From: Candidatus Binatota bacterium
GTDB taxonomy: Bacteria > Desulfobacterota > Binatia > UBA1149
Assembly: GCA_012960245.1 (NCBI GenBank)
Contig: DUBO01000051.1
Span: 60,887 to 124,886, forward strand
Direction: 5' to 3'
Length of the DNA: 64,000 bases
The notes under the pieces are model-generated. The model saw only the letters and a list, made by a program, of their open reading frames with translations. It was not told where the DNA came from and made no database searches. Shown in pieces: positions 7 through 19,000 of this stretch. Made by a program: the position numbers and the translations under genes. How positions within the stretch are numbered: the stretch's first letter is position 1; the number at the start of each line of letters is the position of its first letter.

Positions 7-3000
7 GTGATGATACGCCCGAACGATCCCGAGGGTGTGCACACGGTGCAGCGCGGTGCCGGTTGCTCCGTTGACGTCGGTGGCAATGTGATCAACAACT
101 GCAGCCCTGACGTCCGCTTTACCAACGATCCTTCCAACTACACCTTCAACCATCTAACGGGTGTACCCTGGTGCTTACCGAGTACCGTTGCTCGGGATTT
201 CACCGACGAGAACGGAAACGTAGTAACGGCTCAGTCCGACGTGTTTGGCGAGGGCGACGCTCTTTGCCCGGCCAGCAACAAGGACGACTTCGATCCCGCA
301 ACCACCAACTGGGTGGTCCCGGATTCGAGGCGCTTCGTGCCGTTGGCGGTGGGAGACCCCATAGGAGCAGATGGTAACTTCGAGACCGTTAACGGAGTAA
401 CGTTCTTCTCGGCCCACACCATAGTCATAGAGCTGTCCCCAACGACCCGGGATGACCCCAGCCAGCCCGACTACCTGCTGGTGGCTGAAGTCGGAGGCGA
501 CGTTTCTGGTTTTTCCAACGCACGCTTGAAGGGGATGGCCATAGGCATGGACAGTTTTGAGTCGCAGGTCGACGTGGCGGTGATCGACATCGATCCGGCG
601 ACCAACGAGGACAAGGCGCGCATTGTATTAAGCACGGTGGGTAATCCGCATACCGTTTGCATGGGAGTGAACCCGCTGCTGCCCCCCGGCGGCTTACCCG
701 GGGCCGTTCCCTGCTCCGTAGACAACGGCGGTAACATATTCAAGATCATTTTTGACGTTGATTTTGTTGTCGGGGTGGGCCCAAAACGTTCGTTTTGCAC
801 CAACCTGTTCAACGCCGGGCTGAGGGCCTCGGCAGTTTGCAGCCTGGGTGAGGAAGTCGCGACGTTCTTACCGATAACGCGCGAAATGATAATGGTCAGT
901 CGCCACCAGGCGGTTGTTAACGCAGCCGGCTCCGGCTCTCTCAACATAAACGGAAATCCGGCCGTCCACGGTGAGTATCTGTCGCCGCAAGGCGTAGGTC
1001 ATCCCGAGTTCGACGAAGTGACTTTGACTAGTGTAGGCACTGCCTTTCAGTTTGACGGTATTCCCTGGAACCTCGACCGGCGCCTGGGCCCGGGTGGCTG
1101 CGTGGACACCGACGGCGACGACGAGGTCGATTGCGAGAGCCTGGTTGACTTTCCGGTGGGTAGCTTTGGCCTGGATCCTTTTCCTTGGGATCCGTTGGAT
1201 CCCAGGGTGCGTGGTCCCCGCCTGGACGGCGACAATGTTGACTTACCGCTGGGGAGTGCACACCGCGTTCTGAGTCACTGGCCCCACAGTCCCGGCGCGG
1301 CCGCGGTGGTCGACGCCCAGGGGAATGTAATAACTCCAGCGATTGCGCCCGACCAGATTCCGTGGCCGCCTGCAACGGCTGCAGGACAAGAAGGGGGAGT
1401 TCTCGACTGTAGTGACGGTGACCCCTGCACGGTTGATTCCTGCGATGAGCATGAAGGCTGCTCGCATGTGCCCTCGACGGGTGACAATTGCGACGACGGA
1501 GACGCCTGCACATTGGGCGACGTCTGTAACGCCGGTGTGTGTGAATCCGGATCGCTTGATTGCACCGATAACACTTGCACGGCCACGTGCGACGACGGCA
1601 ACGACTGCACGGACGACGGTTGTGCTGCCGGTGCCTGCACGACGACCAACAACGTGGTGCTTTGCGACGATGGAGATGAGTGCACGACGGGCGACAGCTG
1701 CAACGGCGCCGGTGTTTGCACGGGAGGCGTTCCGCCGATCTGTGACGACGGCGATCCCTGCACGGCCGACAGCTGCGATTCGCTGCTCGGATGCGTTGAT
1801 TCCTTCGCGGCAAGCGGCACCTCCTGCGATGACGGCGACGCTTGCACGAGCAATGACCAGTGCGACGGGCTTGGTGACTGCCAGGGGGGCGGGGCTACCG
1901 GCTGCGACGATAGCAATCCCTGCACCGACGATTTCTGTAACTCCGCGGGAGGTTGCTTGAATGTATCCAACTCCGCGCAATGCTCAGACGGCGACGCGTG
2001 CACGGTGGACGACCTGTGTTTAGGCGGACTGTGTGTTTCCGGAGCCACGGACGACTGTGACGATGGTGACATCTGTACGGTTGATAGTTGCGATGCGGTT
2101 GGCGGTTGCGCCAACACTTTCGCTGGCGGGGCTTGCGACGATAACAACCCCTGCACCGACGATGTGTGCGACGCTTTAGGCGGTTGCGTGAGTACGGCCA
2201 ACGCGGCTTCTTGCGACGACGGTGACCCTTGCACTACTGGAGATAGTTGCCAGGCGGGCGCCTGCGTTGGCGGAGGTCCGACCGACTGCAGTGACGACAA
2301 CGTCTGCACCGACGACAGTTGCGGCGTGGGTGGCTGTGTACACACTGCCAACGTTGCCGCTTGTGACGACGGCAACGACTGCAACACGACCGACTTGTGC
2401 ACCAATGGGGTATGCGTTGGTAGCGGCACCCCGAATTGCGATGATTTGAACCTGTGTACTTTCGATTCCTGCGACCCGATCTTGGGTTGTACCAACGATC
2501 CCAACACGTCGGCCTGCGACGACGGCGACGCCTGCACGGAGAACGATACTTGCGCTAACAGCGGATGCTCGGGCTCGGTGGTTGCGCCTGCCTGCGGCAA
2601 CGGTTGCATAGAAGCCACAGAGACCTGCGGCGAGCCCGACATGGTGGGCTGCGTTTTGGGCGAGACTTGTGGCGCTGCGTGTACCTGCGAGGCCCAGAAC
2701 TGTGCCGTCCTGTTGATGACCGGCCCGCCGGCCCTGCCAGCTGCCGGCCAGCCGCTGGTGCTCTTCGTGAAGCTCAACGTAGGGACGATCCCCTTGGGTA
2801 GCTATGCTGTAGACCTGTCCTGGGATCCGGTTGTGTTGCAGCTCGACTCGGTAGCGGGTGGCAGTAATGCGCAATTCGGTGGAGCGCCTACCTGCAACAT
2901 AAACAACGCGGCCGGCACGGCCAGCTGTGTTGGTTTGAACGCCTCGGCGCTGAACCTCCCGTTTGGCGAGGTGCAAGTGGCTAACCTCAACATGACCGTT

Positions 3001-6000
3001 GTAGACGCGTCGGCCGGCGAGGCCACCGTGTCGGTGACCGCGGGCGTGATGAGCGATACCGCGGGCGACCCGCTTCCGGCTTGCAACGCGAGTGCTGACC
3101 TGACCGTGCTTAGTGGTTGCGGCGACGTTAACGGTGACAGCAACGTCAACATTGTCGATGCCCTGCTCACGGCCCAGTTCCAGGTCGGGCTGCGAACATG
3201 CAGCCAGATGGCCCGCTACGACGCCTGCGACATCTCGCCTGCGCCCACCGGCGACGGCTCATGTAACATTGCCGACGCGTTGAGGATGGCCCAGTGCAGT
3301 GTTGGCTTGATATCCTGCGACTTCGTCTGTTCGCCCCTGGTGTGCTCTGAACCAGCGGGCGCCATGATGATAGACCTCGGCGGCGAGACCGCGGATCTTC
3401 ACCTGCCCAGCGGGCAGGCGGAGGTCAGCATCTCGCTGCCCGGGGGTACCCCGAGCCCCGGGCAGGTGATAACAGGCGAGCTGGTCATCGACACCGGCTC
3501 GTCCCTGGGTGCGTACGGGATCGACATAATCTGCGATCCCGCACTCATGAGGATCGTGCCTCCGGTGGCGGGGGGCACCACGGGGGAGTTTTCGGGCTCG
3601 CCCGTGCAGAACGTTTCGGGCTGCAGCGCCAGCCTGAGTGGCTTCCAGTTCTCTAACCTCGCCGGTCCCAGCGGACTTGTGAGCGTGGCCAGCGTGCAGT
3701 TCGAAGTCCTGGCCTCGGCCACCCCGGGCGGCACCAGCCTGGTTGACCTGGCTACCACAGTGATGGTGGATACTAGCGGAAACCCTATTTTAGCCACCGA
3801 TCTTGATAGCACGGTAACTATCGGTGGCGGCTGCGGAAACGGAACACTTGAACTCGGCGAGCAGTGCGACGACGACAACAATGTCAACGGCGATTGCTGC
3901 TCGGCCTCCTGTAACTTCGAAGTCGGATCATGCTTCGACGGCGACTCCTGCACCACCGGCGATACCTGCCAATCAGGTTCCTGCGTGGCTGGAGCAACCC
4001 TTGATTGCGACGACAATAATCTTTGTACCGACGATAGCTGTGATTCTTTGAGCGGCTGCGTGAACGTGGCCAACACGGTTTCCTGCGACGATGGCGATGC
4101 CTGCACCGAGAGCGACGTGTGCTCGGGTGGAAGCTGCCAGTCCGGCGCGGCGGCCGACTGTAGCGACGGTAATATCTGCACCGTTGACTCCTGCAACTCT
4201 GCTTCAGGCTGCCAGAATCAGCCTTCTAACGCGGCCTGCGACGATGAAAATGCTTGCACCGACGACAGCTGCGCGGCCAATGCCTGCAGCAGCACGCCCA
4301 ACTCGGCCTCCTGTGACGACGGTGACGCTTGCACCACTACTGACACCTGCGCGGCGGGTAGCTGCTCGGGTTCGGCCGTAGACTGCGACGACGCCAACTT
4401 GTGCACTACCGATTCCTGTGATGCTGCCAGCGGTTGTGCGTACGCGGCCAACTCGCTCGCCTGCGACGACGGGGTCAACTGTACCACCGGCGATACCTGC
4501 TCTGCTGGAATCTGCCAGGCTGGTGCTCCGGTAGTCTGTAACGACGGTGACGTCTGTACCGACGACCAGTGCAACGAGGCCGACGGAACCTGCTCCAGTT
4601 TTGCTAACACGGGGCCAGCCTGCGATGACGGCGATGCCTGCACCACGGGCGACGCCTGCTTCGGCGGCAACTGTGTGGGTGGCGCGGCGCCGGACTGCGG
4701 CGACGGCAACGTTTGCACTGATGACGTTTGTAACTCGGCCAGCGGTTGCTCCAACCCGGCCAACACGGTTGCCTGCAACGACGGTGACGCCTGCACCACC
4801 GCTGACACCTGTTCTGCGGGTTCCTGCGTGGGCGGAGCGGCTCCCGATTGCAACGACAGTGATCTTTGCACTGCCGACAGCTGCGACTCGGGCTCGGGCT
4901 GCGTGAACACGGATATATCGGCTGACTGTGGCGACGCTAACGTCTGCACTACCGACAGCTGCGATGCGATCCAGGGTTGCATAAACGCGCCCAACACGGT
5001 GGCTTGTGACGACGGTGATGCCTGCACACAGGTAGACAGCTGCGATGGCGCTGGCGCCTGCGCTGGATCTGACCCGGTGCTGTGTACGGCCAGTGACCAG
5101 TGCCACGACGCGGGCAGCTGTGCCCCGGCCAGTGGCCAGTGCAGTGACCCTGCTTCGGCTGACGGTACGCCCTGTGATGATGGCAACGCCTGCACGACCA
5201 ACGACAGCTGCCAGTCCGGCACCTGTGTCGGCGGCGCGGCACCGAACTGTGACGACACTAACGTCTGCACTACCGACAGCTGCGATGCAGCCAGCGGTTG
5301 CCAGCACGTGCCGGTGGCGCTGTCTTGCGATGACGGCGATGCGTGCACGGTTGCCGATTCGTGCAGCGGCGGCGTCTGCTCGGGTACGACTCGTGATTGC
5401 AACGACAGCAACGGCTGCACAAACGACAGTTGCGATCCGGCCTCGGGTTGCGCCAGCGTTGACAACACAGCGCCATGTGATGACGGAAACGCCTGCACCA
5501 CGAGTGACACCTGCGCCGGTAGTTTCTGCGTTGGTGGAGTAGCTCCTGAATGCAACGACGGCAATGGTTGCACCACCGACAGTTGCGACACAGCGTCGGG
5601 CTGCCTTTACTTGGATAACTCGCTCGCCTGTGATGACGGTAACGCCTGCACGGACAACGACAGCTGCTCAAGTGGGCAGTGCCAGGGCGGCGGAGCTGCG
5701 AACTGCGACGACTCCAACTCTTGCACGGTTGATCTGTGCGACTCGGCTACCGGTTGCCAGCACTTCAACGTAGCCATCGCGTGCGATGACGGCAACGCCT
5801 GCACGACCGACGACCAGTGCAGTAGCGGTGCTTGCGTAGGCGGCGCCCCGCCCAACTGCAACGATTCAAACGTTTGCACTGACGATAGCTGCGATGCCGG
5901 CCTGGGCTGCGTAAACACAAACAACACGGCCCAGTGCTCAGACGGCGACGCTTGCACCACCAGCGATATCTGTTCGGCTGGCAATTGCGGCGGTACCGAC

Positions 6001-6996
6001 ACGTCGGCGAGCGATTGTGATGACAGTAATGTGTGCACCACTGACAGCTGCAACGCGGTTTCTGGTTGCGCCAACGTGGTCAACGCGGTGGCTTGCGACG
6101 ACGGAGACACTTGCACGACGGTTGATCTCTGTGTCGATGGAGCCTGCGTGGGTACGGTTCCGCCCGATTGCGACGACACCAACGGTTGCACGGACGATAC
6201 CTGTGACAGTGCTACCGGTTGCGTGAGCACCGACAACACGGCCTCCTGCGAGGACGGCAACGCCTGCACAAGGGACGATACCTGCCAGGCGGGATCCTGT
6301 GTGGGCGGTGCGGCGCCCGACTGCGACGACGATAACGAGTGCACGGAGGATACCTGTGACGCTGCCTCGGGCTGCGCGCACGGTAACAACACCAGTAGTT
6401 GCGACGACGGCGATTCCACCTCGGTGGGTGACCAGTGCTTAGCGGGCAGCTGCGTGTCGGGTAACTTCGGCTGCCCGGCAGCCCCGGCGCCCGACTGCAC
6501 CCAGCCTTACTTCGAGCGTAAGTCCAAGCTGCTGCTTAAGAACAACAGCCTGGACAGCAAGGACAAGTTGCTCTGGAAATGGGCCAAAGGTGGTGCCACG
6601 ACCACGGCAGATATGGGCGACCCATCGGCCACTACCGAGCACGCACTGTGCATCTGGGACGAGGTAGGCGGTACGCCCGCCCTGGTCATGGAAAACCACG
6701 TCCTGCCGGGCAACGGTTGGCAAGTATCGGCTTCGGGCATTCAGTACAAGGACCGCGTAGGCGCTCCGGACGGCGTGGCTAAGCTGAAGATGAAGGCCGG
6801 GCCCGACGGCAAGGCCAAGATCCTGATCAAGGCCAAGGGCGCCGCCACGGGTCTTGCGGCCATGCCGCTGTCGCTGGACGACAAGCTTACAGTGCAGTTG
6901 GTGAACAACTCGGGCGGATGCTGGCAGTCGGATTTCGCTGCGCCGACCTCGCGTAATAACCCGGCATTGTTCAAGGGAATTTCTTCCTTCAGGTGA
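7..6996 (+). CDS. Giant secreted modular protein, probably 5'-truncated at the window edge. It has an unknown N-domain, CTDC-type Cys-rich repeat block 1, cohesin-like domain 1, a dockerin-like module, cohesin-like domain 2, CTDC repeat block 2 (about 35 units), and a conserved ~170-aa C-terminal domain shared with the next gene.
   Basis: The 2329-aa ORF is open to nt 1 (GTG at 7, no upstream stop, no signal peptide), so it is likely partial. Tandem 24-25-aa repeats of the form CDDGxACTxxDxC...GC fit the Dictyostelium CTDC (PF00526-like) spacing. One unit at ~3826 is CGNGxxExGEQCDDDNNVNGDCC, which is myxo disulfide-repeat-like. A DVNGDSNVNIVDALL dockerin Ca-loop lies at 3124. LSWDPVVLQLDSVAGG and GIDIICDPALMRIVPPVAGG are cohesin-like beta-sandwich motifs. 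The C-terminal KLLWKWAKG...CWQSDF block aligns with the C-terminus of the 7263..12509 protein. Confidence 0.8.
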   Translation: MMIRPNDPEGVHTVQRGAGCSVDVGGNVINNCSPDVRFTNDPSNYTFNHLTGVPWCLPSTVARDFTDENGNVVTAQSDVFGEGDALCPASNKDDFDPATTNWVVPDSRRFVPLAVGDPIGADGNFETVNGVTFFSAHTIVIELSPTTRDDPSQPDYLLVAEVGGDVSGFSNARLKGMAIGMDSFESQVDVAVIDIDPATNEDKARIVLSTVGNPHTVCMGVNPLLPPGGLPGAVPCSVDNGGNIFKIIFDVDFVVGVGPKRSFCTNLFNAGLRASAVCSLGEEVATFLPITREMIMVSRHQAVVNAAGSGSLNINGNPAVHGEYLSPQGVGHPEFDEVTLTSVGTAFQFDGIPWNLDRRLGPGGCVDTDGDDEVDCESLVDFPVGSFGLDPFPWDPLDPRVRGPRLDGDNVDLPLGSAHRVLSHWPHSPGAAAVVDAQGNVITPAIAPDQIPWPPATAAGQEGGVLDCSDGDPCTVDSCDEHEGCSHVPSTGDNCDDGDACTLGDVCNAGVCESGSLDCTDNTCTATCDDGNDCTDDGCAAGACTTTNNVVLCDDGDECTTGDSCNGAGVCTGGVPPICDDGDPCTADSCDSLLGCVDSFAASGTSCDDGDACTSNDQCDGLGDCQGGGATGCDDSNPCTDDFCNSAGGCLNVSNSAQCSDGDACTVDDLCLGGLCVSGATDDCDDGDICTVDSCDAVGGCANTFAGGACDDNNPCTDDVCDALGGCVSTANAASCDDGDPCTTGDSCQAGACVGGGPTDCSDDNVCTDDSCGVGGCVHTANVAACDDGNDCNTTDLCTNGVCVGSGTPNCDDLNLCTFDSCDPILGCTNDPNTSACDDGDACTENDTCANSGCSGSVVAPACGNGCIEATETCGEPDMVGCVLGETCGAACTCEAQNCAVLLMTGPPALPAAGQPLVLFVKLNVGTIPLGSYAVDLSWDPVVLQLDSVAGGSNAQFGGAPTCNINNAAGTASCVGLNASALNLPFGEVQVANLNMTVVDASAGEATVSVTAGVMSDTAGDPLPACNASADLTVLSGCGDVNGDSNVNIVDALLTAQFQVGLRTCSQMARYDACDISPAPTGDGSCNIADALRMAQCSVGLISCDFVCSPLVCSEPAGAMMIDLGGETADLHLPSGQAEVSISLPGGTPSPGQVITGELVIDTGSSLGAYGIDIICDPALMRIVPPVAGGTTGEFSGSPVQNVSGCSASLSGFQFSNLAGPSGLVSVASVQFEVLASATPGGTSLVDLATTVMVDTSGNPILATDLDSTVTIGGGCGNGTLELGEQCDDDNNVNGDCCSASCNFEVGSCFDGDSCTTGDTCQSGSCVAGATLDCDDNNLCTDDSCDSLSGCVNVANTVSCDDGDACTESDVCSGGSCQSGAAADCSDGNICTVDSCNSASGCQNQPSNAACDDENACTDDSCAANACSSTPNSASCDDGDACTTTDTCAAGSCSGSAVDCDDANLCTTDSCDAASGCAYAANSLACDDGVNCTTGDTCSAGICQAGAPVVCNDGDVCTDDQCNEADGTCSSFANTGPACDDGDACTTGDACFGGNCVGGAAPDCGDGNVCTDDVCNSASGCSNPANTVACNDGDACTTADTCSAGSCVGGAAPDCNDSDLCTADSCDSGSGCVNTDISADCGDANVCTTDSCDAIQGCINAPNTVACDDGDACTQVDSCDGAGACAGSDPVLCTASDQCHDAGSCAPASGQCSDPASADGTPCDDGNACTTNDSCQSGTCVGGAAPNCDDTNVCTTDSCDAASGCQHVPVALSCDDGDACTVADSCSGGVCSGTTRDCNDSNGCTNDSCDPASGCASVDNTAPCDDGNACTTSDTCAGSFCVGGVAPECNDGNGCTTDSCDTASGCLYLDNSLACDDGNACTDNDSCSSGQCQGGGAANCDDSNSCTVDLCDSATGCQHFNVAIACDDGNACTTDDQCSSGACVGGAPPNCNDSNVCTDDSCDAGLGCVNTNNTAQCSDGDACTTSDICSAGNCGGTDTSASDCDDSNVCTTDSCNAVSGCANVVNAVACDDGDTCTTVDLCVDGACVGTVPPDCDDTNGCTDDTCDSATGCVSTDNTASCEDGNACTRDDTCQAGSCVGGAAPDCDDDNECTEDTCDAASGCAHGNNTSSCDDGDSTSVGDQCLAGSCVSGNFGCPAAPAPDCTQPYFERKSKLLLKNNSLDSKDKLLWKWAKGGATTTADMGDPSATTEHALCIWDEVGGTPALVMENHVLPGNGWQVSASGIQYKDRVGAPDGVAKLKMKAGPDGKAKILIKAKGAATGLAAMPLSLDDKLTVQLVNNSGGCWQSDFAAPTSRNNPALFKGISSFR
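1400..2575 (+). repeat. CTDC-type Cys-rich coding tandem repeat block 1 (about 15 units of ~72-75 nt) inside the giant protein gene
   Basis: Read directly from the translation: a repeating CxDGDxCTxxDxC / CDDxNxCTxDSCDxxxGC pattern. Confidence 0.8.
3826..6475 (+). repeat. CTDC-type Cys-rich coding tandem repeat block 2 (about 35 units, organised as a ~150-nt super-repeat of two alternating subtypes)
   Basis: The motif ...CDDGDACTTxDTCxAGSCVGGAAPDCDDxNxCTTDSCDAASGC... is reiterated with highly similar nucleotide sequence. Confidence 0.85.
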
Positions 6997-7262
6997 CACG
7001 GCGAACTGGTGATTGTTCACCCGCCGCGTCGCCCAGGGGGGGCGAGTCGACGTCGGCCTGCCTTTGGCAACGGGGATGCCAGGGCAGCCGCGTCGACGAA
7101 GGATCCCGAAACCGGCAGAGCAGACGCTACAGCGTTTAACCGTGACGCATAATTACCCGTTCGGGGGGCGAGACAGTTTCCGAAATGGGGGCTAACGTCA
7201 TTAGCAAGGATAGTCAGGGGGGGGGTCCTCCGATGTTCTAAGTTTTTTGGAGGTCTTGTTCG

Positions 7263-10200
7263 ATGTTTGTATTCTCGGTTGTTACTAACGGTTTCTTTTC
7301 TCGTGCTGCTGTCTCGACAGCAGCCCTGGCCCTTATTCTCGGCTCGGCCGCTACGGCATTCTCACAGCCGGCACCGCCGCCTGCAGGTGAACCGTTGTTT
7401 GCCCCTCCACCGTCGTCGCTCAAGACGGCACTGGTTCCCGAACCGTCGACGCTCGCCGAGTACGTTGTCGACAAGCAGGCCGCCATCACCCTGGGGAAGG
7501 CCCTTTTCTGGGACATGCAGGTGGGCAGTGACGGGGTGCAGGCCTGCGCTTCCTGCCACTTCAGCGCGGGCGCCGACAGCCGCGATAAAAACACCGTTAG
7601 CCCAGGCCCCAACGGGGTGTTTGACAGCCTGGGGCCCAACGGGACGCTGACCGCTGCCGACTTTCCATTTACGAGTTTTGCCGACAACGACAACCGCCTC
7701 TCGACTCGTATTCACTCTGACGATGTCGTCGGTTCGCAGGGCGTTCACAAGGTCGATTTCCTTGACGTAGTGCTCGGTAGTCCCCTGGCCTTCGACCAGG
7801 GAACCGTGCTGCTCGACCCCACCTTCCAGGTTGGCGGGGTAAACACCCGGCAGTCAACCGGCCGCAACACCCCGTCGACCATTAACGCGGTATTCAACTG
7901 GCGTAACTTTTGGGACGGTCGTGCCCAGCCGCTCTTCAACGGTGTCAACCCCGGTGGCGCACACGATCCGTCAGCCCGCGTGATCGAAATACTCGCTGGT
8001 AGCGACGGTGTCCTCGGTACCCTAGACGACACCGTAGAGGCGGTGTCGGTGCTCATAGACAACGCCAGTCTTGCTTCGCAGGCGGTGGGTCCTCCCAACA
8101 GCGAAGTAGAGATGGCCTGGGCTGGGCGTATTTTTCCCAAGATAGGTAAGAAGATGCTTGCGCCCGGAATCATTCCGCTGGCCAAACAGCTGGTTCACTC
8201 CAGTGATAGCGTGCTGGGCGCGCTGGCCAAGACCAACACCAACCCCAACCTTCCGGGCCTCGATGCGAGCTACGAGACGCTCATACAGCAGGCTTTTGCG
8301 CCCCAGTGGTGGGATTCGGACAAGGTCGTGACTTTTCCCGGGACGGTTGCCTGTGGCGACACGCTCGGCATCGATGCCTCCACCTGCGCGGGCTTCCCGA
8401 CCATTTCTGATCCCACCGGTGCGCTGCTGACAACGAATGAGTACACGTTGATGGAGGCCAACTTTTCGCTTTTCTGGGGACTGGCTGTGCAGTTATACGA
8501 GGCCACCCTGGTATCGGACGACTCGCGTTTTGACCAATTCATGGACGGCGGCGGCATAGGCGGCAACACCGAGCACCTGCTCAACGCCGAGGAGAGGTTG
8601 GGCCTGGATGTTTTTCGCAACATCGGCTTCGCGCCGGGCGTCAGCGCCGGGCTCTGCGTAGGTTGCCACGTGGGCGCGGAGATGACGGCCGCGGCTACCG
8701 CTGCCATCAACTCGCTGGAGCCTTTTTTCCCGGGTGAACCGCCTCCCGTGCCCGAGTTACCGGTCGAGCAGATGCTCATGGCCTTCGGCGTGGGGCTCAA
8801 CAATCTGAACTTCCAGACAGATCCGCTGGCCATACTGACGCCCGAGTTTGCCGGGGTTCTGACCTTTGACCCGCGAGGATCGTTGATGCAGATCACACAG
8901 GACTCGGTGCCCACCGGCGCCTGCAACCTGGACGGGAGCTGCCCCAATGTCACCACAGCCGGTTTCGACGGAGTGCCGGGTACCGGTGACGACGGCAGTG
9001 TTCCCCAGCATTGCACCTGCAACAATTTTGACACAGCGACCCAGACCTGTGTTTCCGAGGGATGTGCGCCGGCCATTTTTACCCGCGACTACCTCGGTAC
9101 CCCCGGCCAGACCCAGCTGGGTGCGACCCCCCCCGCCGACTGCGGCGTGGGGTCGACCCTGAGCGCCCAGCTGTTTCCTACCGGCGCCGGTTCGCTCGTA
9201 AACCCCTTGTCGTTCGCCAGCGCGCTGTTCGTGCAGCAGCCTGACTGCGCGGCCGACCTGTCGACCGGTACGCTCGGCCTCGCGCCGGGCGACTACAGCT
9301 TTTTTGTAGACGGCATAAACCGCGGCACCATGCGCGTGATTGCCGACGTGATCTATGACTTCGGCTTCTACAACATTGCAGTGACCCCGACCTTCGACGA
9401 CGTGGGCGTGGGTGGCGATTCGCCTCCAGGTCAGCCGATATCGGTTGCCAGGCGCGCGGTCATGATGGCCGACGGAGAGCCTTGCGGCCAGGACCCCATT
9501 AACAACCCGCTGGTCTGCGACATGCCCGAACTCACGGGCGCGTTCTGCCTGCCCGGTGTGAGTGGCAACTGCACCATCCAGGATCCGTCGTTCGTGGCGC
9601 CCGGCACTCTCGAAGTGGTTGACGGTGCCTTCAAGGTGCCCCAGCTGCGCAACGTGGAACTGACTGGTCCGTACTTTCACAACGGTGGCAAGGGCACCCT
9701 CGGCCAGGTCGTTGATTTCTACAACCGTGGAGGCGACTTCCACGAGGACAACCTTCTGGAACTGGCACCGGAGATAATCTTTCTTGCCATGCCCCAGGTT
9801 GACCGCGACGCGTTGGTGGCCTTTCTCAAGACGCTCACCGACGAAAGGGTGCGCTACGAGGCAGCTCCCTTTGACCATCCGGAAATTTCGATACCCGTTG
9901 GCCAGGTTGGTGATGACCTCGCCGTGAGCGACACCAACTTTGACGGTAACGCTGACGATGTCTTCATGCACCTGGCAGCCGTTGGCGCACCGGGTAACTG
10001 CACGGGCGTAGACGGCTCAGCTCGCAGCTGTGATGACAACAACTCGTGCACAGATGACAGCTGCGTGCCCGAGTTCGGTTGCGTGAACGCACCCAATACA
10101 GCGCTCTGTAATGATGGTGACTCCTGCACCACGGCCGACCAGTGTGATGGAGCCGGCGGTTGTGCGGGCGTAGACACATCGCTGGTCGATTGTGACGACG

Positions 10201-12509
10201 CGGACGTGTGTACCGATGACAGTTGCGATGCGTTTGCCGGTTGCACGAACAGCTTCAATGCGTCCGGCTGTAGCGACGGCAACGCCTGTACCACGGGTGA
10301 TACCTGCAACGCGGGTATCTGCGTTGGTGGACCGCCACCGGCTTGTGACGACGGCAACGTTTGTACCGCAGATCTTTGCGATAGCAGCGTGGGCTGCGTG
10401 TCGTTGCCTACGTCGGTGAGTTGTGACGACGCGGATCCTTGCACGATCGATGACTTCTGCGTCAACGCTGCCTGCGTGGGCTCCACGCCCCCGGACTGCA
10501 GCGACGGCAATGTCTGCACGGACGACAGTTGCGTGAGCGCGGCCGGTGGCTGTGTGAACCTGCCCAACTCGGCGCCCTGCGATGATGGCGATGCCTGCAC
10601 GACCAACGACACCTGCCAAGCCGGTGTCTGCGTGGGTGGCGCGGCGCCCGACTGCGACGATGTCAACGGTTGCACCGACGACACTTGTGACAGTGCAATC
10701 GGCTGCGTAAGCGCAAACAACACGGTGTCTTGTGAGGACGGCGAGTTTTGCACCGACGGCGACCAGTGTTCGGGTGGCTCCTGCCAGCCGGGTGCGGCCA
10801 GGGATTGCTCGGATGGCAACGCCTGCACGACAGACAGCTGCGATGACGCTGCCAACCAGTGCCAGCACGTGGCCGACGATGGCTTCTGCGATGACAGTAA
10901 CCCCTGCACGAACGATTTCTGTTCGACGGCAACGGGCTGCTTCTACCAGGATAACGGCTTTGCCTGCGACGACGGGGACGCCTGCACGACCATCGACACC
11001 TGCCAGGCCAGTGTGTGTGTGGGTAGCACGCCGCCCAACTGCGACGATGGAAACGGTTGCACCGACGACGTCTGCGACAGCGCGACGGGCTGTGCGAACA
11101 ATGACAACACTGCCCTTTGCAGCGACGGCGACGCCTGTACTACCGGCGATGCCTGCTCGGCGGGCAGCTGCTTTGGCGGCGCCGCGCCTGATTGCGACGA
11201 CGGTAACGTGTGCACGGCCGACACCTGCGACACAGCCCTGGGTTGTCAAAATACCAACGTAGCTGTCGCCTGCGACGACGGCGACGCCTGCACCACGACC
11301 GATACTTGCTCGGCCGGCGGTTGCGTGGGGGGTGCTGCCCCTGATTGTAACGACGCCAACGGCTGTACCGATGACGTCTGCAATAGCGCGACGGGTTGTT
11401 CCAATACTGACAACACCACGGCCTGTGACGATGGTGACGCTTGCACAACCGGTGATATTTGCGCGGCTGGTTCGTGTGCCGGTGTAGATACTTCGGCCCA
11501 GGATTGCGAAGACGGAAATTCCTGCACGCTGGACTTCTGCAACCCTGCGAGCGGTTGCGTGAACGCTGCTACGGCTGGTAGTTGCGACGACGGCGACGCC
11601 TGCACGGATGACGACCAATGTATCAACGGGTCCTGCTTAGGCGGAGGCGCGCATGATTGTGATGACGCCAACGGTTGCACCGACGACAGTTGCGACAGCG
11701 CGACTGGTTGTGCCAACAGCGACAACACGGCCGCCTGCGACGATGGCGACGCCTGCACCACGGCTGATACCTGTGCGGCGGGTAGCTGCGTGGGCGGGGT
11801 CGCGCCGGATTGCGACGATGGCAACGGTTGCACCGACGACACCTGCGACAGCACGAGTGGCTGCGCTTACTCTAACAACACAGCCACTTGCGATGACGGC
11901 GAACCGCTCACCCCGGTAGACCAGTGCATCGCCGGCCAGTGCGTGGGCAGTGGATTGCAGTGCCCCGTACAACCAGTGGCGGGTTGCCGACAGCCGGTCA
12001 AAATTGGCAAGGCCAGGCTGGCGCTCAAAAAGAATGCTGTGGTGACGGCCAAGGACCGCATGAAGTGGAAGTGGGCCAACGGGTCTGCCACCGCGGCCGC
12101 CGACTTTGGTGACCTCGTTGGTGGTAGCGGTGAAGGTCTCGCCATTTGCTTCTACGATGAAGTTGCCGGCCAGGCCTCGCTTGTGATGGACCAGCTGGTG
12201 CCCGCGGGTGGCAGCTGCGGCGGCAAGGATTGTTGGGTAGAAACACCCAGGGTCATTAAGTTCAATGATCGATCGGGCGCAGCCAGCGACGGGATAACGG
12301 CATTAACTATCAAGCCCGGCGCCGACGGCAAGGCCAAGATCAAGGTCAAAGGCTCTGGTACGCGACTGGGAGTGGGTTCGCTGCCCCTGTCGATGGACAC
12401 CAAGGCTACCATGCAGGTCATAGCCGAGCCTGGTAGTTGCTGGCAGGCCGATTACTCGTCAGCTGCCAAGAACACCGACGGGCAGTTCAAGGCCAAGAGT
12501 TCGAATTGA
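7263..12509 (+). CDS. Secreted di-heme cytochrome c peroxidase (CCP/MauG family) domain with large insertions, fused to CTDC-type Cys-rich repeats (about 10000-11930) and the shared C-terminal domain (about 11957-12509)
   Basis: A GGAGG RBS sits 8 nt upstream and the N-terminus looks like a signal peptide. Heme motif 1 ([23 protein letters not shown]) is at 7545-7559. Heme motif 2 (GLCVGCH) is at 8655-8669. The CCP signature [31 protein letters not shown] is at ~9640-9730. These are followed by ~25 CDDGxACT-type repeats. The C-terminal KWKWANG...CWQADY block is homologous to the C-terminus of the upstream gene. Confidence 0.85.
   Translation: [1748 protein letters not shown]
10000..11935 (+). 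repeat. CTDC-type Cys-rich coding tandem repeats in the peroxidase fusion gene
   Basis: Same repeat family as 1400-2575 and 3826-6475; some units are near-identical at the nucleotide level. Confidence 0.8.
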
Positions 12510-13042
12510 TGTCGAGTCTCCGGCTTGAAGAATATGCGAAGAAAGCCCTGCTCGGGGTAGCGGTAGCCATGATTTTGGCGGCTATCGCGACCCCTGGCCT
12601 GGCTGTCGCCTCCTCATCCGACTTGGACAAGTGCAAGTTAGCCATCGCGAAAGCCGACTCCAAGTACGTGGGCAAGTACACCAAGGCCTCGCGACGGTGC
12701 ATGGACGACGGGGGCTCTGCTTCTGCCTGTATGGGTAGTACTGGCGGTGACGCTCGCTTTGTGGCCGCAGTGGGCAAGGCTCAGTCGCGGGCGAACAAGC
12801 TGGTCCTGAAAAAATGCTCCGCCTGGGGGGCCGCTGAAAAGGTTCGCTACGACCTCGGCTACGGTTCCAGCTGCCCAGGCATCGCCCAGCCCGGTAACTG
12901 TGATTTCGAACTTTCGGGGCTCGATATGCAGGGGGAAGACAATGACCTGCTCGAGTGCCTGGGGTGTCTTCATTCTCACATGGCCGAATGTTTGACTGCT
13001 GCTGCCTACAATATCGCCGTGCCTGGAGGTCGTTGTTTCTGA
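12509..13042 (+). CDS. Small secreted Cys-containing domain protein (177 aa), paralogous to the N-terminal domain of the downstream multicopper-oxidase fusion
   Basis: The ATG overlaps the TGA stop of the peroxidase gene (TGATG), which implies translational coupling. There is a signal peptide (MSSLRLEEYAKKALLGVAVAMILAAIATPGLAVA). The conserved pattern KC..RC..SC..KCS..DLGY.S.CPG....CDF..G.D..GE.ND.L.CL.C matches residues ~50-170 of the 13068 protein. Confidence 0.6.
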   Translation: MSSLRLEEYAKKALLGVAVAMILAAIATPGLAVASSSDLDKCKLAIAKADSKYVGKYTKASRRCMDDGGSASACMGSTGGDARFVAAVGKAQSRANKLVLKKCSAWGAAEKVRYDLGYGSSCPGIAQPGNCDFELSGLDMQGEDNDLLECLGCLHSHMAECLTAAAYNIAVPGGRCF

Positions 13043-13067
13043 CCAGCAGAAGCAGCCGAAGTCCGCG

Positions 13068-16000
13068 ATGAACAATTCTCAACCATTTTATCTACCGGTC
13101 TTCAAGACGATTCGGACAGCGCTGTTATGTTCGGTGTTGATGCTGCTTGTTCCCTTGACGGCAGTGGGCGCCGAGCAACAGCAGGCAGGGGATAGATTTC
13201 CTTCTAATCCGCTAGGAGCCTGCAGCACCAAGCTTGCTGCAGGAGGAGACAAGCTGTTCAAAAAGGCGGCCAGGGCACTGCAAAGATGCCAGAAGGCCGA
13301 CATGTCGACCTCGTGTCTACTCAACAGGCCGGCGAGCGTAGCGGGCGAGCTGTCGGGCTACGCGACCAAGGCACGACGTTCGATGGCGGGCAAGTGTTCG
13401 CGTATTAATTATGATTTGGCTGGATACCCTTCCACCTGTCCGGGTTTCGGAGACGCTTGTGATTTTACCGTGGCTGGCTGGGATGTCACCGGCGAAAAGA
13501 ACGACATGCTTGACTGCCTGCTTTGCATGTACGACGCAGCAGCGAGGCGGAGCCTTGAACTGCAGGTCGTGGTACCGCGTTGCGGCGACGGCATGGACAA
13601 CAGGCTCGACGAAATTTGCGATGACGGTAACGATGACAGTAACGACGCCTGCCTCGGAGACTGCCGCGCGGCGAGCTGTGGTGACGGTTTTGTCTGGGCC
13701 GGCCAGGAGAGCTGCGACAACGGTGACGCTAACTCCGATACAGAGGCAGATGCCTGTCGCAGCGATTGCACCCCTGCGGTCTGCGGTGATGGGACGGTAG
13801 ACAGCGGCGAAGAATGCGATGACTCGGGTGAATCGGCCAGCTGCGACAGCGATTGCAGCCTGGCTGTCTGCGGTGACGGTACCGTAAATGCCTCGGCCGG
13901 CGAGACTTGTGACGACACGGGTGAATCGGCTAGCTGCAACAGCGACTGTACGGTGGCCTCCTGCGGTGACGGCACGACTAATGGCACGGCCGGCGAATCC
14001 TGTGATGACGGCAACGGGGATAACACCGACGCCTGTCTCAACGATTGTTCCCCAGCCTCCTGCGGTGACGGTTTCACATGGGCGGGCTCAGAAGACTGCG
14101 ACGACGGGAATGCCGACAACAATGATTCCTGCCTGGACAGTTGCACAGCGGCGACTTGCGGCGATGGTTTTGCCTGGGCGGGCACCGAAGAATGCGACGA
14201 CGGCAACGCCGACAACGGTGACTCCTGCCTGGATAGTTGCGTCACCGCGACCTGTGGCGACGGCTTTTTATTCTCGGGCAGCGAGCAGTGCGACGACGGA
14301 GCGGCCAACTCTGATACCGCGCCCGACACTTGCCGCTCTGATTGCGAACTGCCGAGCTGTGGTGACGGGGTAGCCGACAGTGCGGAGCAATGTGATGATG
14401 GTAACGCCGACGACAACGACTCCTGCCTCGGCTCCTGTGTCGATGCGTCCTGCGGCGACGGTCATACCTGGGCTGGAATAGAAGCTTGCGATGCGGCTGG
14501 CTATAGCGCTTCGTGCAACCTGGACTGCAGCGTCTCGGTGTGCGGTGACGGCAAGGCCAACCCGGCGGCGGGTGAGGCCTGCGACGCGGCGGGCGAGAGC
14601 GCGGTTTGTGACCTCGATTGTAGTCTTGCGTCCTGCGGTGATGGAACGATGAACACGACGGCAGGCGAGGCTTGCGACGCGGCGGGTGAGAGCACAACTT
14701 GTGATCTCGACTGCAGCCTTGCCTCCTGCGGTGACGGAACAACGAACGCCACGGCAGGCGAGACCTGCGACACGGAAGGCGAAAGCGCCTCCTGTAACGC
14801 CGACTGCAGTACTGCCGCCTGTGGTGACGGCAAGGTCAACAGCAGCGCGGGCGAACAGTGCGATGCGGCGGGAGAATCTGATTTATGCGACGGCGATTGC
14901 ACGGTGGCTGCCTGTGGCGACGGCACCACTAACGCTACTGCCGGCGAGGCCTGCGACGACGGTAACAACAGCAACGGCGATGGCTGTCTCGATAGCTGTG
15001 CCACGGCCAGCTGCGGCGATGGCTTCGTCTTCGCGGGCGAAGAAGCCTGCGACGATGGCAACTCTTCAAACGCTGATGCCTGCCTGGCTGATTGTGCGGT
15101 TGCGAGCTGCGGCGATGGCTTTGTCTTCGTCGGCCAGGAAGCCTGCGATGACGGCAATTCCGACAACGGTGACGCTTGCCTCGACAGCTGCGAGACGGCG
15201 TCCTGCGGCGACGGTTTTCTGTTCGTCGGCGGGGAAGAGTGCGACGATGGCAACAGCAGCGACACCGACTCCTGTAGCGCGGCCTGTGATTCACAACGCG
15301 TAATTTCAGCCGGCGTGGTAGCGCTGGACCAGGTGCTTACCTACAACCGCTGGGGTAGCCACCAGGCTGCGGGGATGATTTTTGCGCTCCGGCGCGACGT
15401 GGTCGACATGGCCGGTAACCCAATAGGGGAGGGCGGAGTGCCAGGCCAGGTAATGCTCAGGCCAGGCAAGCGCCCGCGCCCGCTGGTGCTCAGGGCCAAC
15501 GAGGGGGATGTTCTGCAGGTCCACTTTACAAACCTGCTGGCACCGGCCAGGCCCAACGCCAAGGGAACGACCACGAGGCTGGCTTCGATGATGGTAAACG
15601 GCACGCGTGTGCTGGGCAACACCCACGACCCGGTCGTGACCGGGCTCGAGGGAATCGCACCGGGGCAGTCTACCGACTACTCGTGGAAGGCCGGGCACGA
15701 GGGCACAAAGTTGTTCTACAGCCTCGCCGGACCGGCTGGCGGTGGTGGCGACGGTGGCCAGCTTTCGCTCGGACTTTTCGGAGCTTTAAACGTCGAGCCC
15801 GAGGGCAGCAGCTGGTATCGCAGCCAGGTGACAGCGGCAGAGTTGGCGACGGCGCGGTCCCAGGCCGAAGCACCTGCGCTGCTTAACTACGACGCGGTAG
15901 ACATTGCAGGAGTGCCGGTGCTGCGCATGCTCGACGACGCCGGTGAACTTGTGCACTCTGATCTCAACGCGATCATCGCCTACGACCAAGCAGCAGATAA

Positions 16001-19000
16001 CGTGCAGTCGACCTCCGAGGCCACTTTCAGGGAGTTCTCGGTAATCTTTCACGACGAGATCGAGCTGACCCAGGGATACCCCCAACTTGATAACGATGTA
16101 CTCAAGCCGGTGAGCGATTCTTTTGCCATCAATTACGGCTCCGAGGGCCTGGGCTCGCGCCTGCTGGCCAACCGCCTGGGCGAGGGGCCGGCTGCGAACT
16201 GCCTGGAGTGCCCCTACGAAGAGTTCTTCCTCGAGTCAGCCGTGAGCGGTGACCCGGCCCTGCTGAATGTTTTCGAGGATGATCCCTCCAACGTTCACCA
16301 CAGCTATATCAACGACAACGTAAAATTCCGCAACCTGCACGCGGGCCCGAGAGAAACGCATATCTTTCACCTGCACGCTCACCAGTGGCTGGCCAACGCG
16401 GGTGAGGGTATCGACGACAACTCGGTATACCTTGATTCGCAGGCAATAAGCCCGATGAGTAATTTCACCTACGAGATCCAGTACGGTGGCGCGGGCAACC
16501 GCAACAAGGTCGTCGGTGATTCAATTTTTCACTGCCATCTCTATCCCCACTTTGCCCAGGGCATGTGGGAGCTGTGGAGAGCACACGATGTACTGGAGGA
16601 TGGAACCCGTCGCCTGATGGACGGAGAACTGGGACCGGGAACAAACCCGCTCACCGGGGTGACGGTTGGCGGCACGCCCATACCCGCGCTTGTTCCAATG
16701 CCCGACTACGCGATGGCCCCCGATCCCAGCTACGGGCCGAACGCATTGCCCGGGTATCCTTTCTACATGGCGCAGGTCGCGGGCCACCGGGCTCCACAAG
16801 CACCGCTTGACGTGGCCAGCGACGGCGGACTGCCGCGACACGTGTTTACTGACGGCGGCCAGCGAAGCACGGGTGCGGGGGCTGCCAGTTTTGATTTCCA
16901 CGTCGACGTGCAGGTCGCCAACATACAGGTGCTGCCCCAGGAGGGAACGGCGCTTGAGCAGGCCGCGATGGCTTTTCACGCCAGCCCCGGTGTGACTACC
17001 ACCACCCCCGAGGGTGACGCAGCTTTCTTTGAACTGAACGGCTTGCCTTCCACCGCCGGTGCCCCTTACGCTGAGCCCTGTCCGCCCCTATGCGGCAGCG
17101 CCCAGCAGGGCGAGTACCAAGCAGCTTGCATGGACGGCTGCACGGGCAAACCCTGGGATCCCGAGTGCTCATTGCGTTGTGAAGACTGCACCACGGCCCA
17201 CCGCACCTACCACGTGTCGTACATAGAGCTCGACCTGTTGGCCAACGCGGCCGGCTGGCACGACCCACAGGGGCGCATAAACGTGCTCGACTCAGACGTT
17301 TCTCTCTACGAGGGACAAACGACCACGGCGGATCCGTTTTTCTTCAGGGCTAACTCGGGTGAGTGCGTCACGTTCAAGCACACCAACCGCGCGCCCAAGG
17401 AGTTTGACCTGGATGATTTCCAGGTGAGGACGCCCGCTGATGTGGTTGGCCAGCACATCCACCTTGTCAAGTTCGATGTGACAAGCTCCGATGGCTCGGG
17501 CAACGGGTGGAACTACGAAGACGGTACTTACTCTGCTGAAGCCATCGCCGAATGGACGGCGGCCAGCAATGCTCTCGGTGGGTCGGCCACCTCGGGATAC
17601 GACGCGGCGGGCAACCCCGTCAACGTGTGGGGCGACGGCGCAACCTCGGGGGTGCCCACGACGCTGACGGCCGACGGTGGCTTTCAGACCACCACGCAGA
17701 GGTGGTGGGCAGACCCCTTGCTCAATAAGCATGGCCAGGACCGCAGCATAAGAACGGTGTTTACCCACGATCACTTTTTTCCGTCTACCGGCCAGCAGCA
17801 CGGTTTTTACAACGCGCTCACCATAGAACCTGCCGGTTCGCAGTGGCTCACGCCCGACCTGACCGATGATCTTTCGCTGCCGCTCGACCCCGCCCGCGGT
17901 GTGGGTACGCAGGCATACATAATTGCCGCGGACAGCAAGACCTGCACGGTGAGCGGGGAGGCGGTAGCCGTTGAACCGTTGCCCTGCAACTCGGACGCCG
18001 ACTGCCCTGAAGAAGAATGGTGCATGAATATGGACCACCGTGAGTTCATGATGGCGGTGGCCGATCTTGCACTTCTTTATACGCCCCTGGGTGTGCCCAT
18101 AGGCGCGCCGGCCCAGCCAGAGGCCATATCGAGTAAGGGTGGAACAGACGTAGTAAACTACCGTAACGAACCTTTTGCCGGACGCGGCGGCCCTCATCCC
18201 GATGCCGATTTGGATACGCTGAACTCGGGTAACGGCGTACCTTCCGGCGCGTTCAGCTCCTGGGTAAACGGCGACCCCTTTACCGAGATATTCAAGGCCC
18301 GCGAGGGCGAACGAATGCAGGTGCGGCTTATACAGGGCGCACAACAGGCCCAGCACAGCTTCAACCTTCACGGCGGGTTGTGGCCCGAGGCCATAGACGA
18401 CTCTGGGTCCCCGATGGTTCAGGGCCAACCCATAGGTATATCCGAACACTTCGAGTGCGACATGGGCGTGGCTCCGCCGGTGACCGGCGGCGGCGTGGCC
18501 GATTACCTGTACCATTTCGGCGCCAATGATCATTTGAACGACGGAAGCTGGGGTCTCATTCGCGTGTTTGCTGACGGGCTTTCTTTTGATGCCAGCGACT
18601 CTGAACTCAGGTCGGCGCAACTGGCCGCCGCGGCTGCCGGCGAGCGCAACGACTGCCTTGAGGATTCACCCGCGCGCTTGTTCGAGGTCGAAGCCTGGCG
18701 GGCCGCCGACCTGCTGCCCGGCGGCCGGCTGGTGTACAACCAGCGCGAGGACATTTACGACCCCAACGCGCGTATCTTCTTGCTGGCCGAGGACCGGGCC
18801 GCACTGGCGGCGGGTACCAAGGCCGTCGAGCCGCTCGTGCTCAGGGCCAACTCCGGCGACTGCATCACGGTGTCGTTGACTAACCACATGCCAGACACCG
18901 AGGTATCGATGCATCCGCAGCGCGTGTCCTACGACGTACGCTATTCTGACGGTGCCAACGTGGGCTTGAACTTTCTCCAGACCGCTATGCCCGGTGAGAC

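Follow-up and report, generated by a model that had tools for sequence, protein, structure and literature searches.

Di-heme enzymes of the cytochrome c peroxidase (CCP)/MauG superfamily include canonical peroxidases, whose E heme is ligated by His and Met, and MauG-type enzymes, whose E heme has a His/Tyr ligand pair, is of low potential, and forms a bis-Fe(IV) state (PMC11892367). Few MauG-type enzymes have been studied (MauG, MbnH, and BthA), and each displays unusual high-valent iron chemistry. MbnH has MbnP as its partner (PMC11892367); SACCP-MopE and CorB-CorA are further pairs, with SACCP located at the surface (PMC3912023); and BthA of Burkholderia (PDB 6nx0) is an orphan MauG-type enzyme with a stable bis-Fe(IV) state and more sequence than the CCPs have (PMC6405878). 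Here we describe a gene of this superfamily found in a 64,000-nucleotide stretch of Candidatus Binatota contig DUBO01000051.1 (assembly GCA_012960245.1, positions 60,887 to 124,886), which we call the window and whose first nucleotide is position 1 below. According to the list of open reading frames (ORFs) and their translations, the gene occupies positions 7263 to 12509 of the + strand and encodes 1748 amino acids (aa) plus a stop, arranged as a signal peptide, a di-heme head, a Cys-rich stalk, and a C-terminal domain.

The gene product is very probably a secreted MauG-type enzyme of what we term the long form, functionally tied to a copper oxidase. It is a new architectural variant in a large uncharacterized branch of a known superfamily, a branch far larger than the handful of enzymes named above. 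Long-form genes recur beside, or fused with, genes for multicopper oxidases, SCO1 copper chaperones, and a protein family that we call X, and this recurrence defines a multienzyme module, which is the part of our results that should be most surprising to specialists. The open-access literature that we searched describes neither the long-form family nor X nor a module combining a di-heme enzyme with a multicopper oxidase; most subscription journals lay outside the search, which makes this a weak negative. The PF03150 similarity network in the BthA paper merely notes the existence of uncharacterized clusters (PMC6405878).

The exact 1748-aa product has been deposited publicly (HIF64443.1 and MEO2136233.1, from a Candidatus Binatota metagenome-assembled genome [MAG]). 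Because this protein is encoded on 11 public contigs in the search index and belongs to a 90%-identity cluster of 20 members, we regard the ORF as a real gene and not an assembly artifact. A scan of positions 6900 to 13100 for sigma-70 promoters and terminators found nothing exceeding shuffled expectation.

A predicted MauG-type ligand set in the di-heme head

The head comprises about 910 aa (7263 to 9992). A first-pass annotation, made from the sequence without database searches, had recognized the CCP/MauG hallmarks in it, and all of them are present: CxxCH motifs at aa 95 and 465 and a PQLRNVELTGPYFHNGG box at aa 793. The motif of heme 1, the peroxidatic (P) heme, is CASCH (C95-A-S-C98-H99; 7545 to 7559, on the + strand like every feature of the gene); it lies within LGKALFWDMQVGSDGVQACASCH and aligns with the first CxxCH of PDB entries 1iqc, 1eb7, and 6e1c. 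The motif of heme 2, the E heme, is CVGCH (C465-V-G-C468-H469; 8655 to 8669) and aligns with the second CxxCH of the CCPs. Both motifs are invariant in an alignment of 114 sequences and in register with 1iqc, 1eb7, 9qdt, and 6e1c. The PQLRNVELTGPYFHNGG box extends from aa 793 to 809 (9639 to 9689); within it, T801 and P803 are the aligned counterparts of T275 and P277 at the Ca site of MauG, and H806 is invariant.

The register was examined by comparing the single sequence (phmmer) and a family profile with all PDB sequences, the profile giving E values from 1e-35 to 1e-15. Four core blocks (aa 71 to 108, 197 to 225, 405 to 475, and 788 to 864) are colinear with solved CCP, YhjA, MbnH, MauG, and BthA chains, and the motifs noted in the first pass are in register with solved CCP, MauG, and MbnH. 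An AlphaFold model built with 114 sequences had a mean predicted local distance difference test (pLDDT) score of 82.9 and a predicted template modeling (pTM) score of 0.84. Its significant Foldseek matches in the PDB were exclusively CCPs, MauG, and MbnH, with a probability of 1.00, target-normalized template modeling (TM) scores of ≤0.61, and coverage of both lobes. Together with the alignments, the model supports the prediction of a two-lobe, all-alpha di-heme domain of the CCP/MauG superfamily.

The predicted sixth ligand of heme 2 is Tyr820 (9720 to 9722), which aligns with Tyr294 of MauG and, in the Nitrosomonas CCP (1iqc), with the position held by the Met ligand. Residue by residue, the query reads ...VVDFYNRG where MauG reads ...AILFYNKY, with numbering read off the chain. 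The first-pass annotation had left open whether this ligand is conserved as Met, Tyr, or His; among the 238 motif-matching sequences of 261 family sequences, 237 have Tyr, 1 has Phe, and none has Met, and Tyr is invariant in the 114-sequence alignment. Because the E-heme ligand position holds Tyr and never Met, we assign the long-form family to the MauG type and not to the canonical peroxidases.

Other functional positions of MauG are recovered as well. The core block RNTPSTINAVFNWRNFWDGRA (7848 to 7925), aligned with 1zzh, 1eb7, and 1iqc, contains W217, the counterpart of the inter-heme Trp (W93 in MauG), and N202, which by alignment completes the Ca-site Asn, Thr, and Pro with T801 and P803. 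In the distal-pocket motif SLASQAVGPPNSEVEM (8067 to 8114), Q273, P277, and E283 align with Q103, P107, and E113 of MauG; this motif also matches QAGGPPLNPIEM of 9qdt and is nearly invariant in the family alignment. The Trp, likewise nearly invariant in that alignment, is found in 222 of the 261 family sequences and the Gln/Glu pair in 209. The titles of PDB entries for Y294H-, Q103N-, and P107S-MauG confirm that the aligned positions are studied functional sites.

The cytochrome c peroxidase identity given in the first pass therefore needs to be narrowed. Membership in the superfamily stands, with Pfam CCP_MauG (PF03150) scoring 68.3 bits for the whole protein (E value, 1.5e-18) and 71.7 bits for the head against a cutoff of 25.6, but Tyr820 places the protein with the MauG type. 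Canonical bacterial CCPs have Met at this position, about 145 aa between the heme motifs, and a length of 300 to 350 aa. The protein is likewise no ortholog of MauG or MbnH, because its scores against the corresponding NCBIfam models are far under their cutoffs (TIGR03791, 56.5 versus 443.85 bits; TIGR04039, 76.9 versus 362.85 bits). The window genes that were scanned include neither mau genes nor genes for methylamine dehydrogenase, and no MbnP-, MopE-, or CorA-like partner was seen in Pfam scans of the neighbors.

An ordinary peroxide-detoxifying CCP with acquired decorations would agree with the labels that NCBI and JGI apply (“cytochrome c peroxidase”), with the conserved peroxide pocket, and with a cytochrome c gene nearby. 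The near-universal Tyr and the absence of Met argue against it, since the E hemes of His/Tyr enzymes are of low potential and the peroxidase turnover of these enzymes is poor (PMC11892367). A stalk of about 640 aa, secretion tails, and the fusions to copper oxidases described below would also be unexpected in a periplasmic scavenger, and we consider this explanation very improbable.

Conserved inserts define a widespread long-form family

The first-pass annotation had estimated that the heme motifs are much farther apart, and the domain much longer, than in typical CCPs, and the arithmetic is right: the spacing is 370 aa versus about 145, and the overall length is about 910 aa versus about 330. 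Its interpretation of the domain as carrying unusually long insertions holds, with one correction. All 120 of the best homologs have a heme spacing of 314 to 363 aa, so the long spacing is a property of the family; what is exceptional is the segment after heme 2, insert D. As far as sequence comparison can tell, the peculiarity specific to this gene is insert D, with about 210 extra residues, and not the long heme spacing.

Four inserts separate the core elements. Insert A (aa 109 to 195; 7587 to 7847) lies between blocks 71 to 108 and 197 to 225, exceeds canonical CCPs by about 70 residues, and contains the family-conserved P135 and H137. Insert B (aa 222 to 268; 7926 to 8066) lies between FWDGRA and the distal-pocket motif, where MauG has 5 residues. 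Insert C (aa 285 to 399; 8115 to 8459), about 85 residues beyond canonical CCPs, stretches from E283/M284 to the helix FGLAVQLYEATL, which aligns with all CCPs. A C-terminal extension of the head (aa 865 to 910; 9855 to 9992) carries an APFDHP motif with conserved P869, D871, H872, and P873 and has no counterpart in the aligned PDB chains. Because the inserts are rich in invariant or nearly invariant residues, for example in YDxGFYNIGVRPTxEDxGxGG and APFDHP, we do not regard them as floppy loops.

Insert D (aa 478 to 787; 8694 to 9623), delimited by alignment and a census of spacings, consists of nested layers. The first is a family-level segment with a YDxGFYNIGVRPTxED motif, and proteins with this layer have 98 to 120 aa between heme 2 and PxLRN. 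The second is a beta-sandwich of about 145 aa found in a subgroup, in which this distance is 232 to 260 aa. The third consists of Cys-rich pieces at approximately aa 553 to 600 and 741 to 770; it is present in the query only and brings the distance to 328 aa. AlphaFold placed strands at aa 631 to 699 and had low confidence at aa 566 to 621, and Foldseek returned only weak Ig- or filamin-like matches; searches of Pfam, PDB sequences, and Foldseek gave no assignment for the insert. The inserts may form docking surfaces, as suggested in the first pass. One version of this idea, with insert D as a docking domain for X, was considered and rejected: its length is independent of the presence of X, and X-linked enzymes have 113 to 157 aa between heme 2 and PxLRN, the window protein being the only one with 328.

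We define the long-form family by a heme spacing of 314 to 370 aa, the YDxGFYNIGVRPT and APFDHP motifs, and inserts A to D; no curated model describes it. A search of 90%-identity clusters gave >7,600 matches, 1,091 clusters at 50% identity match with an E value of ≤1e-30, and there are at least 586 matches among species-representative genomes. Members occur in Cyanobacteria, Myxococcota, Verrucomicrobia, Planctomycetes, Acidobacteria, Nitrospirota, Chloroflexi, and Geobacterales; the window protein is 45 to 54% identical to members from many phyla, and taxa of soils and sediments often carry the family. Typical members have 640 to 730 aa and are labeled “cytochrome c peroxidase” or are unnamed. 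We found no characterized member.

RoxA is a secreted di-heme protein whose CCP-like core is buried beneath large insertions, and this resemblance raises the possibility that the long-form enzyme acts outside the cell to oxidize or oxygenate an organic polymer or a small molecule (humic or phenolic compounds or, as for RoxA, a polyisoprenoid), with the multicopper oxidase acting as a laccase. Both are secreted and have a CCP core surrounded by large inserts, some long-form members have a subthreshold signal for the RoxA model PF21419, multicopper oxidases are often laccases, and the long-form family is frequent in soil and sediment taxa. The relationship itself was examined and rejected: the window protein scores 13.8 bits against PF21419 (cutoff, 26.7), and RoxA was retrieved neither by the family profile in PDB sequences nor by Foldseek. 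RoxA also has a ligand and pocket chemistry unlike that of the window protein and is not known to have the Gln/Pro/Glu pocket and Tyr ligand that are conserved here, and the oxidase in the window is specifically MnxG-like. An organic substrate thus appears improbable to us.

Predicted signal peptide, stalk, and surface display

The N terminus reads as a Sec signal peptide (aa 1 to 34; 7263 to 7364), with a predicted cleavage site between ...SAATAFS and QPAPPP; in the AlphaFold model, the pLDDT of aa 1 to 36 is below 50. The head has 14 non-heme Cys residues, an even number, as expected of a disulfide-bonded exported protein. It is followed by a stalk of 25 Cys4 repeats (aa 923 to 1543; 9999 to 11942), parsed as units of 25 to 28 aa of two alternating types, in which the Cys count is again even. 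The stalk matches Pfam Dicty_CTDC (PF00526) with 134 bits, far beyond chance, and its DNA has a tandem period of 153 nucleotides, equal to two repeat units.

The protein ends in a domain of about 190 aa (11943 to 12506) that is 39% identical to aa 2147 to 2329 of the giant protein encoded upstream, where it corresponds to positions 6439 to 6996. This domain also terminates a homolog (P0003), received no assignment from Pfam, PDB-sequence, or Foldseek searches, has no obvious sorting signal, and may be an anchoring or assembly domain.

The fusion of a CCP to extracellular disulfide repeats was singled out as unusual in the first pass. The stalk itself bears this out, with its 25 repeats and with Dicty_CTDC restricted to 5 Binatota-like clusters among the best 120, but C-terminal display modules as such are common in the family. 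Other members carry Big_9/cadherin, PKD, DUF11/DUF7507, dockerin, or TSP3 modules or PF18962/PF13860 tails, PF18962 being the type IX secretion tail. Judging by these predicted modules, surface display is a family theme, and the chemistry of the stalk is chosen by lineage. The signal peptide, the even number of non-heme Cys residues, and the family-wide tails of the display or secretion type make it most likely that the window protein is secreted and surface displayed.

A module with an MnxG homolog in the window

Two probable partners flank the di-heme gene. Upstream lies the gene for a giant secreted protein (1 to 6996, + strand) that is cut by the window start; it contains the X domain, cohesin/dockerin modules, a Dicty_CTDC stalk, and the C-terminal domain shared with the di-heme protein. 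In full, the giant protein has 2534 aa, and the complete gene is found on another contig (L091, 2130 to 9734). Downstream, at 13068 to 19706 (+ strand), is the gene for a multicopper oxidase of 2212 aa that is clearly homologous to MnxG, the solved Mn oxidase of Bacillus (PDB 9bxa; E value, 1.2e-114), and contains Pfam Cu-oxidase_2 and Cu-oxidase_3. The N-terminal stalk of this oxidase, of about 700 aa, consists of DUF4215/myxo_disulf_rpt repeats, unlike the Dicty_CTDC stalks of its two neighbors.

Between the di-heme and oxidase genes, a gene called on public contigs encodes a small secreted Cys-rich protein of 177 aa (12509 to 13042, + strand), with a start that overlaps the di-heme stop codon. 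The small protein had no match in the PDB or Pfam and is paralogous to the N terminus of the copper oxidase (aa 9 to 172; 28% identity; E value, 3e-14). The position of its gene recalls Bacillus, in which the genes for the small subunits MnxE and MnxF precede mnxG.

The oxidase gene is followed on the same strand by genes for a beta-propeller protein with a YtkA-like C-terminal domain, as assigned by Pfam (19848 to 21746), and two SCO1/SenC copper chaperones. The first chaperone gene (21743 to 22381; PF02630, 62 bits) has a start that overlaps the stop of the propeller gene, and the second (22378 to 23043) scores 72 bits with PF02630 on the ORF at 22255 to 23043, its start being taken from the gene call on L091. 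MnxC of Bacillus is likewise SCO1-like. The last gene of the module (22889 to 24673; true start probably downstream of 23040) encodes a MofC-like fusion of cytochrome c to a periplasmic binding protein (Pfam Cytochrom_C and Peripla_BP_6). With the propeller and SCO1 genes, it rounds out a set of copper-oxidase accessory genes resembling that of mofA/ompB clusters. All module genes are on the same strand, and their order is identical in both public contigs for which genes are listed; seven further places were collapsed as similar.

A gene for a trypsin-like protease with a PPC domain (24877 to 26523, + strand) comes after the module. PPC-rich proteins were also encoded directly downstream of long di-heme genes at five other loci, four in Myxococcales (L005, L008, L014, and L038) and one in a MAG labeled Deltaproteobacteria (L012). 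Farther away, a radical-SAM protein with a DUF3641 C-terminal domain (35363 to 37854, - strand) appears unrelated; its ORF overlaps an adjacent gene for a pyridine-nucleotide disulfide oxidoreductase. The window also encodes an RND efflux system (39841 to 45354, - strand), with an AcrB-like pump, a membrane fusion protein, and an outer-membrane factor, and a Tad/Cpa-type pilus secretion set (53841 to 57820, + strand), with a secretin, a ParA-like ATPase, and a T2SSE ATPase. These two systems indicate a diderm host. Among the window genes, we identified no exporter dedicated to the giant stalked proteins.

Copper oxidases and X beside and fused to long-form enzymes

The association of the di-heme enzyme with copper oxidases extends well beyond the window. 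Four natural fusions were found, three of a multicopper oxidase with a di-heme domain and one of X with a di-heme domain. In L016 (3652 to 12006) and P0303, an MnxG-like oxidase is joined to the di-heme domain; in P0274, it is a three-domain oxidase; and in P0300, X is joined to a long di-heme domain. The fusion proteins are 2000 to 3800 aa long, have Ig-like spacers, and come from Anaerolineae MAGs and other metagenomic proteins. We regard them as the strongest evidence of functional coupling, because they are independent of the background frequency of oxidase genes.

Gene neighborhoods point in the same direction. We clustered the neighbors of 80 species-level long-form loci within a reach of 10 kb and found a multicopper oxidase at 19 of the 80 (a raw count), in at least 7 phyla and often directly adjacent and then followed by SCO1. 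The oxidases are of three types. Three-domain oxidases are encoded directly downstream, often with SCO1 next, in Verrucomicrobia, Eisenbacteria, Myxococcales, and Cyanobacteria; pairs of small cupredoxin-type oxidases are encoded directly upstream in Pelotalea chapellei, other Desulfobacterota, and an alphaproteobacterium; and MnxG-like giants occur in Anaerolineae. Simpler versions of the module are carried by the cultured organisms Pelotalea chapellei (DSM 13688; L054) and Nostoc and also by several Verrucomicrobia MAGs. The loci labeled Prosthecobacter and Chthoniobacter come from MAGs. At two loci, one with an ordinary full-coverage homolog (P0006) and one with an even longer insert D (P0010), no conserved partner gene was found.

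A further class of neighbors, “IIc,” was considered as copper oxidases but proved to consist of Big_9 plus CHRD proteins and was taken out of the count. Such Big_9 plus CHRD proteins recur beside long di-heme genes at Desulfobacterota and Nitrospirota loci (L054, 5102 to 7105; L032, 6404 to 8113; and related loci).

The X family has 123 detected members, all of them “hypothetical,” from sources that include “bacterium MnTg02,” Sideroxyarcus, Thiobacillaceae, and Nitrospira. The X domain received no assignment from Pfam or PDB-sequence searches. AlphaFold modeled it with a pLDDT of 89.3 and a pTM of 0.88, and Foldseek found no solved structural relative (best E value, 9e-3; TM score, ≤0.14). 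When the association was surveyed from the side of X on seven long contigs, a CCP_MauG gene lay within 7 kb on the same strand in six, a multicopper oxidase was present in four, and SCO1 was present in three.

Physical joining to an oxidase could also suit an electron-transfer conduit, in which the two hemes merely pass electrons to or from the cell, with the multicopper oxidase or a mineral at the other end. The fusions would bring redox centers close, and mofA/ompB-type clusters with cytochromes have been proposed for extracellular electron transfer (PMC5566968). A conserved open distal pocket of Gln, Pro, and Glu would have no purpose in a pure electron carrier, however; the 900-aa scaffold has only two hemes, and the module already has a dedicated cytochrome c. 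We consider a conduit the most improbable of the explanations weighed here.

Proposed role of the module

We propose that the di-heme enzyme is one component of a conserved extracellular oxidation module together with the X protein, the MnxG-type oxidase, the SCO1 chaperones, and cytochrome c. In such a module, H2O2 would bind to the five-coordinate heme 1, in the pocket formed by Gln273, Pro277, and Glu283. Because heme 2 is inferred to be His/Tyr ligated and of low potential, the two oxidizing equivalents would be stored in a bis-Fe(IV)-like state and given to the substrate, with no recharging by a small cytochrome or other high-potential donor. The enzyme and the copper oxidase would both oxidize one common extracellular substrate, probably Mn(II)/Mn(III) because the neighboring oxidase is an MnxG homolog, and the enzyme would at the same time use up peroxide, which otherwise reduces the Mn oxide product again. 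The pair would then be a bacterial di-heme counterpart of the manganese peroxidase and laccase pair of fungi.

A surface-displayed, peroxide-driven oxidant that works with the copper oxidase is our best explanation of the observations as a whole, although we hold it tentatively, at slightly less than an even chance. The more specific proposal of a co-catalyst acting on Mn(II) is offered with a little more reserve. Stated generally, the di-heme enzyme is probably a partner that has so far been missing from the picture of how bacteria carry out oxidations outside the cell. The MnxG homolog links the module to extracellular manganese/metal oxidation in a marine Binatota lineage without a cultured representative. 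In Pseudomonas putida, Mn oxidation depends on the genes for cytochrome c maturation (de Vrind 1998, cited in PMC11930936); if our proposal also applied to the classical Mn oxidizers, the di-heme enzyme would be a candidate for this long-unexplained requirement in bacterial Mn(II) oxidation.

Several observations weigh against this explanation. That the protein binds its hemes, has Tyr as a ligand, and forms bis-Fe(IV) is predicted from alignment only. The 2212-aa oxidase scores 669 bits against the MnxG equivalog model NF041487, which has a cutoff of 3100. The partner oxidases fall into three types, and the substrate that they have in common may therefore be something other than Mn(II). At about 70% of the long-form loci, no multicopper oxidase and no X is encoded within 10 kb, from which we conclude that the core chemistry of the long-form enzyme is self-sufficient and independent of these partners. 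Finally, all MauG-type enzymes with an assigned function act on proteins and none acts on a metal ion, a pattern that favors a role in maturation.

As a maturase, the enzyme would use H2O2 to oxidize a specific side chain of X or of the multicopper oxidase by long-range hole transfer and so create or complete a metal site. As candidate modifications, a Trp could become kynurenine or be hydroxylated, or a cross-link could form, on the models of MauG acting on pre-methylamine dehydrogenase and MbnH acting on MbnP. The MauG-type ligand set is found throughout the long-form family, and MauG-type enzymes with assigned or proposed functions target proteins, several of them being paired with copper proteins (PMC11892367, PMC3912023). 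X is nearly always encoded beside a di-heme gene (the six of seven contigs above) and the converse is untrue, which is the pattern of a substrate that depends on its modifier, and the SCO1 chaperones in the module point to the assembly of copper sites. Against this, the di-heme domain is joined to an oxidase or X in a 1:1 ratio in four independent fusions, which would be unusual for a catalytic modifier though possible in cis, and the neighborhoods of most long-form genes lack a candidate partner. MnxG-type oxidases are not known to contain a modified residue. The position just before the second CxxCH, which we take to be that of the surface Trp199 of MauG, is not Trp in the window protein, where the sequence reads ...SAGLC. 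On balance, we think a maturase less likely than not, although it is the most serious rival to the peroxide-driven oxidant.

Whether as a co-catalyst or as a maturase, the di-heme enzyme could be an obligatory partner in an unrecognized, widespread extracellular oxidase system composed of the long-form enzyme, X, and a multicopper oxidase with SCO1. In this strong form, the proposal is less likely still.

Comparison with known systems

Canonical CCPs gave the strongest profile matches (E values, 1e-35 to 1e-30) and the top Foldseek matches, and the window protein has their heme motifs, inter-heme Trp, and Ca site. They differ from it in the His/Met E heme (Tyr here), in a length of about 320 aa and a spacing of about 145 aa, and in being soluble periplasmic proteins that are recharged by small cytochromes or cupredoxins. 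With MauG of Paracoccus denitrificans (3l4m), the window protein appears to share two c-type hemes, the two-lobe fold, the Tyr ligand (Y820 = Y294), the Gln/Pro/Glu pocket, the inter-heme Trp, and the Ca-site Thr and Pro. MauG has about 370 aa versus about 910 aa for the head here, and the window protein is apparently secreted on a stalk.

MbnH (6e1c) was the best single-sequence match in the PDB (E value, 1.6e-13) and is without the long inserts. Like SACCP and CorB, it is a MauG-type enzyme paired with a copper-binding protein, whereas the probable partners of the window protein are a multicopper oxidase and X. BthA was matched by the family profile (E value, 2e-15) but has 477 aa, is restricted to Burkholderia, and occurs in a different gene context. 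It also lacks the inter-heme Trp and the Ca site (PMC6405878, PMC11892367), both of which are conserved in the window protein.

The fungal pair offers a functional analogy, which we draw by inference: a secreted heme peroxidase (manganese peroxidase) and a multicopper oxidase (laccase) cooperate extracellularly (bioRxiv 10.1101/2022.11.10.515945), with folds and heme types unrelated to those of the window proteins. Among bacterial systems, the mofA/ompB-type oxidase clusters carry genes for a cytochrome c (MofC) and SCO1 (PMC5566968), and the window likewise encodes SCO1-type chaperones and a MofC-like fusion of cytochrome c to a binding protein. The descriptions consulted mention no di-heme CCP/MauG-type gene and no X in the Mnx and mofABC/ompB clusters. 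The module in the window also differs from Mnx and mofABC in that its oxidase, its di-heme enzyme, and its X protein each carry a Cys-rich stalk.

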